Assembly (NCBI GenBank): GCA_951406725.2
Contig: OX597820.1
Location: 41,416,001-41,480,000 of the forward strand
DNA from: Octopus vulgaris
Taxonomy: Eukaryota
Length of the DNA: 64,000 bases
Direction: 5' to 3'
Each line of letters opens with the position of its first letter. Position 1 is the first letter of the stretch. The position numbers and the translations under genes are program-made. The notes under the pieces are model-generated. The model was given only the letters and a program-made list of their open reading frames with translations, made no database searches and was not told where the DNA came from. Positions 11,104 to 64,000 of the stretch are shown here, piece by piece.

Positions 11104-11475
11104 GTGGCACTCCGTCGGTTACGACGACGTGGGTTCCAGTTTATCCGATCAGCGGAGCAGCCTGCTCGCGAAATTAACGTGCAAGTGACTGAGCGCTCAC
11201 AGACACGAGTACCCTTAACGTAGCTCTCGGGGAGATTCACTGTAACGCAGAATGTGACAAGGCTGGCTCTATAAGATACAGGTACAACAGAAGCAGGAAA
11301 AGTGTGTGAGAGAAAGTTGTGGTGAATCAATACTGCAAGGTTCACCAGCAACCCCTGCCGGAGCTCGTGGAGCTTTAGGTGTTTTCATTGAATAAACACT
11401 CAACACTGGGAATCGAAACCGATATCCTATGACTGCGTGTCCGCTGCCCTAACCAATAGGCCATTGCGACTCCAC
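11104..11475 (-). mobile_element. tRNA-derived SINE (family A)
   Basis: Reverse-complement similar to the full-length copy at 22354-22744. Confidence 0.8.
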
Positions 11476-22353: not shown

Positions 22354-22744
22354 CGTGGAGGCGCAATGGCCCAGTGGTTAGGGCAGCGGACTCGTGGTTG
22401 TAGGATCGCGGTTTCGATTCCCAGACCGGGCGTTGTGAGTGTTTATTGAGCGAAAACACCTAAAGCTCCACGAGGCTCCGGCAGGGATGGTGGTGATCCC
22501 TGCTGTACTCTTTCACCACAACTTTCTCTTACTTCCTGTTTCTGTTGTACCTGTATTTCAAAGGGCCGGCCTTGTCACTCTCTGTGTCACGCTGAATATC
22601 CCCGAGAACTACGTTAAGGGTACACGTGTCTGTGGAATGCTCAGCCACTTACACGTTAATTTCACGAGCAGGCTGTTCCGTTGATTCGGATCAACCGGAA
22701 CCCTCGTCGTCGTAACCGACGGAGTGCTTCTAAAAAAAAAAAAA
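22354..22744 (+). mobile_element. Full-length tRNA-derived SINE (family A) with poly(A) tail and 12-bp TSD
   Basis: A-box-like TGGCCCAGTGG, B-box-like GGTTTCGATTCC, poly(A) ~22732-22745, TSD ACTCAATTTCAC at 22342-22353 and 22745-22756. Confidence 0.9.
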
Positions 22745-43487: not shown

Positions 43488-43673
43488 CCGCGTGTGTACC
43501 GTTGGCGATTTTTTTCCTCCGTCTTCCCTTCTCTGGATCTTTTCCTTTGTTTCTGACGAAGAGCTCCGCTCGAAACGTTAAATCCCCCTTCTTCCCTTCC
43601 TTCCTGAGCGTCCAATAATGCTATATTTGTTCCACGTCCTCGCGTTGTTGTGTTTTCATGTTTGGATTAACTA
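43488..43673 (+). mobile_element. Short ORF-less element (family H-related) between (TA)n tracts, with hammerhead-like motif at 43549-43583
   Basis: GTTT CTGACGA A GAGC-TCC-GCTC GAAACGTT AAAT; (TA)n at both ends. Confidence 0.65.
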
Positions 43674-43681
43674 TAAATATA

Positions 43682-43742
<61 letters not shown>

Positions 43743-44689
43743 TGTGTGTATGCGTGCGCCTGTGTGTTCTTGTATATGAGGATCAGCACCTCTTTCAAAC
43801 ATATGCTAAAACATTAATAAAAGATATCCGCTAAATGTTTTGAAATTTATAGATCTTGTTTTCGTTTATATTTTCAACAACAAAACTGTAATACTACAGT
43901 TTTATAAAAAAATAAATAAACAAATAAAAGTATATGCTTGTTATTTTCAACATTCACTCACGTGATATATTTTAGGTTCCTGTGTTTGTCTTCGTTTTCC
44001 TAGTCTGAATGTATAGTGGTCTTTGTTTTCGGCTTGGCGTTGTCTGACATCAAACACTGCATGACCAGTTGACTTAAAAAGTCATTGGTGAGGCTATTAC
44101 TTTTATAACCCACAAATGTCACGATTTGCCATTTGCCTGTCTATTGAAGTCAGAATGTTTTTGAATCAGTACAGCCGCCACAATCTTCCTGTGCTTCGTT
44201 CTATAGCTTGGCGGAAAATATTGCTAATATTTTTTTTTCAATGCTTCTCTATCAAGAATTTTGTTGTGTATTTGTGAAAAATACATGTAAGATGCCCCAG
44301 TACTGAGATGCATTATTAGTTGCCTCATGAAACATCACACGTTTAACACAATGCAGGACATACATTATAATGTTATCTATCACATGGCATTTTTTTTCTG
44401 TACTTGTTTCAGTCATTTGACTGCGGCCATGCTGGAGCACCGCCTTTTAGAGTGGTGAAAGAGTACAGCAGGGATCACCTCCTCCTGCCGGAGCCTCGTG
44501 GAGCTTTTAGGTGTTTTCGCTCAATAAACACACACAACGCCCGGTCTGGGAATCGAAACCGCATGTGCAATCATATACTACATCAGATACCATTTGTTAC
44601 AACGACACATATTGAGATGCTTGTACCGTCTATTCTTATTCATATAGAGTTGCATGTGGGACGTACATTTATTGTTCTATATTTTTTAT

Positions 44690-59017: not shown

Positions 59018-59561
59018 CATCATCATTATTATTGTTGTTGTTGTTGTTGTTGTATTTGTTGCGATTTGATGAGATTTGTTGCCGATGTTTCATCCCTGTC
59101 CCCCGTCTGTTTCTATAAATATTGCTGCTGTTCTTGTTAAGTTGCTGTTGTTGTTGTTGTTGTTGTTCGTATTATTGATTGCGTTGAACTTGACATCGAT
59201 TTTGTTAGCAATTTGGCTGTTGTAGTCAAAATAGGTAACTATTTTGCTCGTTGCTGCCGTGTTTGGTGTCTAAGGTCTTTATTGTTGTTTATGGTATTAT
59301 TGTTGTTGTTGCTGTTGTTGTGGTGGTTATTATGATTGGTACCTCACTCACCTCCTTTATAACCTATGTCAAAAATAAGTGACTATTTGTAAGCAACCAC
59401 TGCTTACGTTGTTGCCATTTTTGTTGTGTGAACGATATTGCTTTTGTTGTTGTTGTTTTTTACTCTTGCATACTGTTGCTTTCTTGTTGTTGTTGCTGTA
59501 GTTGTTGCTCTTGTGTTTATTGTTGTTGTTCTTGGGAATTTTCCCGTCGTGCCATTTGTAG

Positions 59562-59562
<1 letters not shown>

Positions 59563-59602
<40 letters not shown>

Positions 59603-59846
59603 TATTACTATTATTACTATTAATATTACTATTATTATTATTACTATTATTACTAATTTATTATTATTATTATTATTATTATAATAATTATTACTATTAT
59701 AATTATTATTATTATTACTATTATTATTATTACTATTATTATTATTACTATTATTATTATTACTATTATTATTATTATTATTATTATTACTATTATTATT
59801 ATTACTATTATAATTATTATTATTATTACTATTATTATCATTACTA

Positions 59847-59877
<31 letters not shown>

Positions 59878-60021
59878 TATTATCATTACTATTATTATTA
59901 TTACTATTATTATTATTACTATTATAATTACTATTATTATTATTATTACTATTATTATTATTATTATTAGTATTATTAGTATTATTATTAGTATTATTAT
60001 TATTACTACTACTACTACTAC

Positions 60022-60090
<69 letters not shown>

Positions 60091-60102
60091 TACTACTACT
60101 AC

Positions 60103-60169
<67 letters not shown>
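59563..60169. repeat. ~600-bp (ATT)n array with interspersed ACT/ATA/ATC variants
   Basis: Directly visible; source of the poly-N ORF 59369-60202. Confidence 0.95.
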
Positions 60170-60707
60170 TGGTATTGATTTTTCTTTTGGTTGTTCTTGC
60201 ATTCACTGTTAATAGAATTGGTCTTAATGTCGCATGTTGTTGATTTTGTTGTTGGTGTTACATTTTTGGGTTTGTTGCTGATACAACTGCTGCCGTTGTC
60301 ATTCTTACTACTCTTGTTTTTTCTTGTTACAGTAGCTATTGTTGTTGATTTTGTTATTGTTTTTACAATTGATGTTATTTCTGTTGGTGTTCCTTCTGTG
60401 GAAGTTGTAGTCTTTCTACTATTATTTTTGTTACTGTCAATGCTCTTGGCATCATTACAGATGTCAAAATAGGTGACTATTTCATCGGTTATATAGTCGT
60501 TGCTTATATTGTCATGGTTGCTGCTACTACCCTTGTACTACAACTTGTCTTTTTAAAGCCTATATCACAAAATATGTTTGCCTTTGGTTTTGCTATTGTT
60601 CTTATTGATAATGTGCCTCTTGTTTTTTTCTTTTATAACTCTCAAAGATTTTTAACATTTCTCAGTTTAGAGTTGATTTTGATGGAGGTGATCACATTTC
60701 TGCGGTA

Positions 60708-60925: not shown

Positions 60926-61868
60926 GACATATTTGCTAGATGGTAGTTCCAAATTTTGGTACAGACCAGTAATTTTACGGGTAAAGTAAATCGATTACAC
61001 CGACTATGAACACAAAGACACACATTCTGTAGCACACGCACTATCATGACAAGAAGCTGCAGCTACGGAAAAGCTTACTGATTACCATCTCATGTATGTA
61101 TGTATATGGAATAGATCTTTTAAGACTTTTAAGTCAAGATTACAGGAAGGTTTTAAATAATCTGTCCTATATACACATAATCTTGATTAATCTTTAAGTC
61201 AAATCTTTTCAGAAATTCGCTGAAAAGCTCTAATAGGAGCGTAAAGTAATACTTATTGTCACCACACCGATAAAGATACTGTGTTCCATAGATACTGTGT
61301 TCCATAATTAATTTTCCTAGCCAGCGCCATCTGGATTGATTTTCTGCAACCGTTATGTCGCACTTGATGACGTTTCTTCTGCTGATTCTGGAAAAGTCCT
61401 TATAAACTCCGAATATATGCATAAATACATGCACATCCCCGCACAAATTTACTCACACAGACCTGTACGTATACACAACATGCAAACACACACACACACA
61501 TGTATATATAGATGTATTGATACTTGATTTTATTTAGGTCATATATACAAAGAACACCAGCCTTATATCAAGATGAAGAATCACTCAATAATACTTGGAG
61601 GCGTGCCGCTTTTATATGTGTTTAGAAGAAAGAGAACGACACTGGCTTCGATGTTTCGGATTACTAACCGTCATCAGACAGTATGTATGTATGTATGTAT
61701 GTATGTATGTATGTACGTATGTATGTCATAATTCAGTTTTATTTCAAGATTTCTTGCCAATAGAGAAAGAGCCAGTTCCTAACCTAGATCCAAGGCTCCT
61801 TCATTGGAATTTCAACATCAGCAGCAAGGTATTTTTGTATGTTTGTATGTATACGTGCAGATTAGTAT

Positions 61869-62577: not shown

Positions 62578-62906
62578 GTGGCACTCTGTCAGTTACGGCA
62601 ATGAGTGTCCCAGTTGATCCGATCAATGGAACAGCCTATTCGTGATATTAACGTGCAAGCGGCTGAGCACTCCGCAGACACGTGTACCAATAACGTAGTT
62701 ACACATGACACAAAGTTCTCAACAGAAACAGGAAAAAAAAAGTGAGAGAAAGTTGTAGTGAAAGGGAACTACAGCAGGGTTCGCCACCCACCCTGCTGGA
62801 AACTCGTGGAGCTTTAGGTGTTTTTGCTTAATAAACACTCACAACGCCCAGTCTGGGAATCGAAACCGCGATCCTACAACCGAACTACTGGGCCATTGCA
62901 TCTTCA
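62578..62906 (-). mobile_element. tRNA-derived SINE (family A)
   Basis: Reverse-complement similar to 22354-22744. Confidence 0.75.
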
Positions 62907-63060
62907 ATATATATATATTAATAGTTATTGCCAAGCTAACTTGGCAGACAAGAAAAATAGGACGAATGCTGCTGTTGATTAGCTCCAAGAAGCCATCGCC
63001 TCTAGCTAGCTATGTGACACGCAAACCTCGAACAGGAGAGGTCATCAGCTTCCTCTTACT

Positions 63061-63124
63061 GGTTCAGACAACCACAGACTAGTTTCAGGGTATTTGCCCT
63101 TTATCAATGTGGAGTAGTCGAACC
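63061..63124 (-). ncRNA. Minimal type-I hammerhead ribozyme candidate (U3-A8 core variant)
   Basis: Minus strand CCACA TTGATAA AGGG-CAAATA-CCCT GAA A-CTAG-T C TGTGG: helix I 5 bp, helix II 4 bp, helix III 1 bp with palindromic CUAG loop, GUC cleavage triplet. Confidence 0.7.
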
Positions 63125-63140
63125 CATATATATATATATA

Positions 63141-64000
63141 CTGGGAACGATGGGTAAATTTTCGCATTTTATATTTTTTATTTAGTGCTATTTGTTTTTC
63201 TTTTTGTCGACTACAGAGTAGAGTAGGATCAGTTGGGCACCGTTCATGAGAAAAATAGCACCATAACGTAATTTACTCTGCCAAAAATTTGGAAACGACA
63301 TGCTGTACTGCTTAACATTGGCGTCAGAAGCTCCAATACGAACATTTTAGTTTGAAGACAGTGCAGAGGATTCGGAAGGAGCTCGATGAATCTAATGAGG
63401 ATTACGAAAGTACGGCAGTTCGAAAATCTCACTCTGATCGTTCTGATAAGAAAAGAACTCCTGAATTTGTTGGTGAGATCCAGGCCATGATTCACAAAGA
63501 TCCCCACCCGCCCACTCACCCACCAAGTCAGTCATGTCCATTGCCAGGGACATGGGAGTGTTTGAGTTTCTTATCAGGGAGGTATTACATGAAGACATTA
63601 GGTATTCCTCATATAAGATTTCTATTAGGTATTCCTCATATAAGATTTCTATCTCAAGCCATCAAGGACAAGAGGTAAGACCGTGCTACGAAGTTTTTGA
63701 ACAAACATAAATATCCCTACCAAACGAACATGCTTTGGTCTCTCTCAGGTGAGAAAATTTTCTGCCAGGATCAGATGGCAAACATACACAACAACCATTG
63801 CCTTGCCGTGTACCCAAAACGTGTACCGAGAGTGGTAAAACCAAATATCCAGTCAACATCATGGTGCTTGGAGTGATCATCAGTGATGACGACGTTTTGC
63901 CTCCATTCATCTTCCCACACAGCCTCAGACACAATACGGAGGCCTATAAAAAGTGCCTGGAGGAGGTAGTGCTGTCCTGGGTCAAGATGGTGGCTGCTGG
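63141..64000 (+). mobile_element. Tc1/mariner-superfamily DNA transposon (maT/DD37D-like), degraded, running off the window
   Basis: Starts after TA; frameshifted transposase TVQRIRKEL...IARDMGV...LWSLSGEKIFCQDQ (degenerate FSDEK)...IMVLGVIISDDDVLPPFIFP...NTEAYKKCLEEVVLSWV. Confidence 0.8.

Follow-up and report, generated by a model that had tools for sequence, protein, structure and literature searches.

A 64,000-nucleotide stretch of the Octopus vulgaris genome (hereinafter, the window) contains a type-I hammerhead ribozyme motif in which the core pair between positions 3 and 8 is U-A, and which resides within a high-copy repeat, here truncated at its 5' side, whose probable identity is the 3' terminus of a Penelope-like element (PLE), a retrotransposon, lodged in (TA)n. 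The motif, with its extended helix I, spans positions 63061..63124 on the minus strand and was delineated from its sequence, its predicted fold and a descriptor search accompanied by shuffles; judged by these sequence features, it is a real type-I hammerhead ribozyme sequence. The core boxes UUGAUAA, GAAA and GUC are all present, with a Watson-Crick 3-8 pair. The 5' core box UUGAUAA occupies 63101..63107 (U3 at 63107, A8 at 63102 and A9 at 63101) and is followed by helix II (63087..63100), in which four base pairs between 63100-63097 and 63090-63087 enclose the loop CAAAUA, the same loop as in the Schistosoma hammerhead. The segment 63077..63086 comprises the GAAA box (G12 to A15.1, 63086-63083), loop III CUAG (63082-63079), U16.1 (63078) and C17 (63077), the last of which completes the cleavage triplet GUC, so that the predicted cut falls between 63077 and 63076 of the minus strand. 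Helix I is formed by a 5' strand (63112-63108) that, together with the UAC bulge of an internal loop, makes up 63108..63116, and by a 3' strand (63076-63072) that, together with the first U of the internal loop, makes up 63070..63076. The helix ends meet in helix I, which is the type-I topology.

In the predicted fold, pair probabilities are 0.72-1.0 for helix I, helix II and the lower stems, and the stability of the motif corresponds to z = -2.85, with 1 of 200 shuffles equally stable. The z-score weakens with added flanking sequence (-1.46 for 81 nt and -1.70 for the 207-nt insert described below), and the monomer also has a fold of equal energy in which the core pairs with the cleavage triplet. 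The minus-strand reading of 63124-63061 and the helices set out in the original prediction thus agree with both the sequence and the fold. Folding also yielded a short hairpin near the 3' end of the element (62930..62945, minus strand).

The descriptor admitted C3-G8 or U3-A8 cores and, in its strict form, required at least five base pairs in helix I and at least four Watson-Crick pairs in helix II. It matched the window twice, and the strict form was matched by the motif at 63061-63124 alone; 300 block-wise dinucleotide shuffles of the window gave no strict matches, and the relaxed form gave 0.17 matches per shuffled window. A pattern for a U3-A8 hammerhead resembling Schistosoma Sm-alpha was found in none of 100 window shuffles, although this pattern was devised post hoc and so is no independent test. 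The Rfam models detect no hammerhead at the locus, either at the gathering threshold over the window, which for the hammerhead clan CL00010 is not reached there, or even at E<=10 over three stretches, in line with the earlier expectation that strict searches would miss the motif. The blank Rfam result and the rate of chance matches to the relaxed descriptor are what one would cite in favor of a chance look-alike, or of a decayed canonical hammerhead whose positions 3 and 8 had changed independently. The absence of strict matches from the shuffles and the predominance of U3 and A8 among family members in all four sequencing runs considered below make this reading extremely unlikely, and the family contig data already largely refute it.

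Several other candidates were examined and set aside. A weak match to the HH9 model at 61220-61255 was dropped as it has no intact core. A second CUGAUGA on the minus strand, at 63049-63043, is not followed by GAAA, and family copies differ at its positions 63045 and 63047. Searches of viral contigs with a loose U3-A8 pattern gave 120 loci, two of them with weak helices in another register, and the Sm-alpha-like U3-A8 pattern gave one viral and 15 prokaryote loci, none of which has both helices, as expected by chance. A second hammerhead-like motif in the window, detected with the relaxed descriptor only, lies on the plus strand at 43539-43596, within 43488-43685, and has a canonical C3-G8 core that starts at 43553. 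It fits the published minimal PLE consensus, with an extra A after A9, a G10.1-C11.1 pair and a 2-nt palindromic loop, and sits in another stub of ~200 bp between (TA)n runs; it has no sequence kinship to the motif at 63061-63124.

The family of the repeat was examined in contigs of four public runs from four studies (X1, X2, X5 and X14, under the organism labels A, A, B and D), which were aligned to 62860-63200 at a likeness of at least 80%; three of the runs, under labels A, B and D, are of the DNA type. The insert is a copy of a high-copy repeat that occurs under all three organism labels: in the DNA-type runs, the summed contig depth over the core is ~500- to 4,000-fold that of single-locus contigs, a ratio that is not a copy number, the single-locus depths being rough. 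Among the best 40 of 50 variant rows in the four runs, none has another letter at 63107 or 63102; the weakest of these 40 is at ~8%, and the remaining rows are probably at 4-8%. Depth at 63100-63111 is 74-84% of that in the preceding bin, where clipping of most copies at a C3-G8 core would leave ~17%. Because no variant is listed at either position and depth is maintained across the core, U3-A8 is the norm among family copies that are at least 80% alike. The claim that the two core changes jointly preserve the 3-8 pair as U-A is thereby borne out, and the proposed comparison, between a U3/A8 consensus and a CUGAUGA family with random decay, comes out in favor of the former. In the hammerhead reaction, it is the 2'-OH of position 8 rather than its base that takes part in the chemistry; hence any 3-8 pair can work. 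Run X1, which we guess to be RNA, includes two contigs identical to the locus (62991-63105 and 63080-63200), which are evidence of neither transcription nor cleavage.

The insert that carries the motif (62919-63125, 207 bp) sits between two (TA)n runs. The run at 62907..62918 marks the 3' junction and is the likely insertion target, as other family copies also pass into (TA)n here; the run at 63126..63139 marks the 5', or truncation, junction, from which point on the family carries different sequence. The insert has stops in all six frames and TA runs on both sides, as had been stated for an ORF-less insert between (TA)n tracts. The accompanying notion of a self-contained element of ~200 bp does not hold: the family sequence continues beyond 63126 with other sequence, and therefore the copy at 62916..63126 on the minus strand is a 5'-truncated stub, likely of the 3' end (pLTR/3' UTR) of a PLE. 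Compared with the family, this copy is without ~17 nt at 63028 and has seven clear private substitutions (3.4%), none of them in the 34-nt core. Self-BLAST with filtering revealed no second copy of the insert in the window, which extends just 875 bp upstream of it on the minus strand.

The window is AT-rich, with 88 (TA)n runs, and its repeats appear to be of a kind known from octopuses. No tRNA genes were found in it and no recognizable gene, Pfam searches with 148 of 192 filtered ORFs giving sub-threshold matches only. Immediately to the left of the insert, at 62600-62906, lies a repeat of ~300 bp with further copies at 22396-22705, 44452-44562 and 11133-11429 (68-84% identity), which is SINE-like, with tRNA-like A and B boxes discernible by eye on the minus strand. 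To the right, 63141-64000 on the plus strand is likely a decayed Tc1/mariner element that begins at the TA run; the Atlas score of 0.88 to DDE transposases is a lead only, and Pfam and the homologue search were blank. A very long trinucleotide array of the (AAT)n type at 59369-60200 yields spurious poly-N/I/Y reading frames. A single contig under label D skips 62903-63125 and weakly hints at an empty site; one of its sides comprises 21 letters, most of them TA.

The earlier label "minimal" is contradicted by the extended helix I and by two Sm-alpha-like features, namely loop II CAAAUA and the internal loop, which places UAC ahead of helix I and U behind it. The so-called min-HHRs are described as having a short helix I, a poorly defined loop 1, an extra base after A9 and a G10.1-C11.1 pair; the helix I of the octopus motif is extended, and the helix II feature is ambiguous, given that the A and U that flank helix II could be unpaired extras since position 11.1 varies. 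According to Cervera and De la Pena (2014, PMC4209133), canonical type-I hammerheads combine a helix I of 6 bp and a helix II of 4 bp with loop contacts that are conserved; that of Schistosoma is described with the loop 2 CAAAUA and the internal loop UCCA:GUAC, the last C of which docks into loop 2 (PMC2632901). Among the best 40 of 50 variant rows, none falls at the corresponding octopus positions 63070, 63091-63096 and 63114-63116, and the neighbors 63067-63069, 63071 and 63073 do vary in the family. The pair 1.6/2.6 is U.U in the copy at 63061-63124, whose helix I thus consists of five base pairs plus U.U; other members have U-A or U.G instead, and helix I reaches six base pairs in much of the family: the sixth pair is restored in ~65%, 45%, 17% and 100% of the depth in X2, X1, X5 and X14, respectively, and under label B the pair-restoring 1.6 change reaches just 17%. 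Position 1.4 changes in 5-83%, with no partner change at 63111 among the variants listed that would compensate for it. In helix II, position 11.1 varies in 3-22%, which breaks an A-U pair with no partner change listed, and position 11.4 varies in 0-8%, which keeps a wobble. By eye, the family sequence beyond 63126 can pair with 63028-63035, 63040-63044 and 63055-63062 in three nested registers; in full copies, helix I would therefore be far longer, forming a long rod, the upstream arm of which has been lost from the present copy.

Many family contigs share a 3' end at 62907-62916, ~190 nt from the hammerhead core, and then pass into (TA)n; some extend beyond this point, as a tail or a further unit would. 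Among the 15 joints listed of 32, five are strand inversions, each represented by one contig per run. The fixed 3' end, the (TA)n target, the 5' truncation and the inverted joints together lead us to interpret the repeat as the 3' end of a PLE, as descriptions of these elements include truncation, tails, copies in inverted orientation and insertion into (TA)n. In the Hydra clade, 26 of 27 PLEs are listed with (TA)n targets, and the hammerheads lie close to the 3' end (PMC8557442). The Penelope-like context that was originally proposed is accordingly likely as far as these traits go; no RT or GIY-YIG gene was reached in the stub or in the Pfam searches with 148 of 192 filtered ORFs of the window. 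No matches to the element were found in two metagenome scans (0 and 0) or in prokaryote genomes (0). Two observations from the published accounts tell against a PLE: an Sm-alpha-like architecture is commoner in retrozymes than in PLEs in print, and CUGA is the core in each of the 34 hammerheads tabulated for PLEs of Hydra and Chlamys.

The first of these observations bears on another scenario, in which the family is a non-autonomous non-LTR retrozyme that self-cleaves, circularizes and is moved by the Penelope machinery, the present copy being a dispersed partial monomer. The type-I architecture of 6+4 bp with Sm-alpha loops is described as the retrozyme type, the sequence beyond 63126 suggests by eye a long rod, the insert has no ORF, and dispersed monomers are reported to be common in retrozyme families, which have themselves been derived from PLE ends in a 2026 preprint (bioRxiv 10.64898/2026.07.22.740005). 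Tandem units of 150-400 bp, each with a hammerhead, are typical of retrozymes; the window holds a single copy. Against this scenario, a go-back joint is just one of the 15 joints listed of 32, found in one contig in each of two runs with TA between. Furthermore, the contigs listed (390-1,508 nt) hold the 3' part, and at most three per run fit two places, although contigs this short could hide arrays; and the fixed 3' end that passes into (TA)n and the strand inversions are described as PLE hallmarks. On balance, a retrozyme seems a possible but rather unlikely identity for the family. A further candidate is a SINE-like non-autonomous element of the Sm-alpha type that is moved by a LINE or a PLE and has a promoter of its own ahead of the hammerhead. 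In favor of it, the loop is identical to that of Sm-alpha, and such elements have been described in Schistosoma. The present copy comes without a promoter-bearing head, and the adjacent SINE-like repeat, located downstream on the same strand, is a separate family, so we consider this origin quite unlikely. The 3' part of the repeat is overrepresented among the contigs: depth at 62968-63015 exceeds that at 63088-63111 ~3-fold under label A, 4-fold under label B and 50-fold under label D, and the excess under label D could reflect either truncation or a more divergent ribozyme subfamily.

How a PLE-borne hammerhead of this kind might work is suggested by folding of two copies together. In the monomer, the probability of the A15.1-U16.1 pair is ~2e-5, that is, helix III cannot close. 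The minimum of the two-copy cofold is a double hammerhead (-43.0 vs -37.6 kcal/mol), in which the self-complementary ACUAGU forms a 6-bp intermolecular helix III with a probability of 0.69-0.82, so that the dimer claim of the original prediction is plausible as a predicted fold only. The gain in energy alone is unspecific, given that an equal gain (at least 5.0) is reached by 3 of 16 loop permutations that are not palindromic. Moreover, loop III is CUUG, through a change at window position 63080, in 36-50% of the depth under labels A and B and in 0% under label D; because of these CUUG copies, the strict palindrome is not universal, and a strict dimer rule is weakened. Cleavage as dimers, at low rates and with possible help from proteins, has been described for PLE hammerheads, and in the case of one PLE, cleavage depended on the protein, and insertion in vitro went ahead without cleavage. 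From the dimer fold and this described behavior, the ribozyme may be thought to process the tandem precursor RNA of the source element. Two hammerheads in such an RNA would pair via ACUAGU into a 6-bp helix III, loop II would contact the UAC/U internal loop in the manner of Sm-alpha, and cleavage would follow C17 (63077). Reverse transcription primed in TA-rich DNA would then start near the fixed 3' end and often stop early, leaving stubs. Under this model, full tandem elements would likely self-cleave as a dimer.

The lone copy at 63061-63124 is likely an inert passenger, considering that no partner is in view, that the upstream arm is lost, that U.U stands beside the predicted tertiary contact and that an intact core is expected by chance. 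The opposite possibility, that the host has retained this copy as a functional ribozyme within an intron or a long transcript, could draw on the observation that the 34-nt core is free of the seven clear private substitutions, and on the extended helix I, which would allow some monomer activity, as described for coral and mussel retrozymes. At a drift of 3.4%, an untouched 34-nt core has P = 0.32, and therefore its survival needs no host selection. Together with the U.U at 1.6/2.6, the missing arm, the single copy in the window and the weak empty-site hint from the label D contig that skips 62903-63125, this renders a host function very unlikely.

The novelty that the original prediction implied for the U3-A8 pair is superseded by the literature, as such pairs were reported in nature in 2011 (PMC3088659), with the same covariation as here and with activity in vitro stated from earlier work (Perreault et al. 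2011), and ~1,300 U3-A8 motifs in Penelope elements of Schistosoma followed in 2014 (PMC4209133). The Cercyon PLE hammerheads of Schistosoma, as described in the latter paper, are likewise type I, with U3-A8, a UUGAUAA box and a palindromic loop III, and occur mostly as single truncated copies; the octopus motif differs in its 4-bp helix II with CAAAUA and in a helix I that extends past the UAC/U loop. With Schistosoma Sm-alpha and the non-LTR retrozymes, as described (PMC2632901, PMC7229834), it shares loop II CAAAUA, a UAC 5' strand and a U 3' strand in the internal loop, the 6+4 bp helices (in much of the family) and a short palindromic helix III. By contrast, the octopus core is U3-A8, its 10.1-11.1 pair is a variable A-U rather than G-C, the internal loops differ in size, and a tandem array is not seen here. 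With the Hydra-clade PLEs (Craig et al. 2021, PMC8557442), the octopus element shares the (TA)n target, frequent truncation and a non-coding sense-strand hammerhead ~100-400 nt from the 3' end; the cores listed for that clade are all CUGA, with a helix III of 3-4 bp, the octopus stub has no ORF, and two short motifs of the octopus element are absent from the text of the supplement to that paper. Further literature cited for these comparisons comprises PMC6765202, PMC11167929, PMC6155905, PMC8967140 and PMC13282606. Our literature searches brought up no paper on this family, on U3-A8 combined with Sm-alpha-type loops or on the CUAG/CUUG split, the work of Lunse et al. on PLE hammerhead variants and some supplements lying outside these searches and possibly describing them.

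In a more speculative vein, it is conceivable, if doubtful, that this abundant animal family, spread over several species, has fixed U3-A8 within a fully tertiary-stabilized hammerhead of the Sm-alpha type that caps a long rod, that it has split into a CUAG subfamily that cleaves as a dimer and a CUUG subfamily that possibly cleaves as a monomer, and that it perhaps gives rise to circular RNAs. If true, this split would serve as a natural experiment that bears on the reason for dimer gating of ribozymes in mobile elements. In itself, the finding is of modest significance, adding one further abundant family to the known U3-A8 hammerheads. Given that both Rfam and CUGANGA searches miss this entire high-copy family, the ribozyme counts in such genomes are apparently too low.
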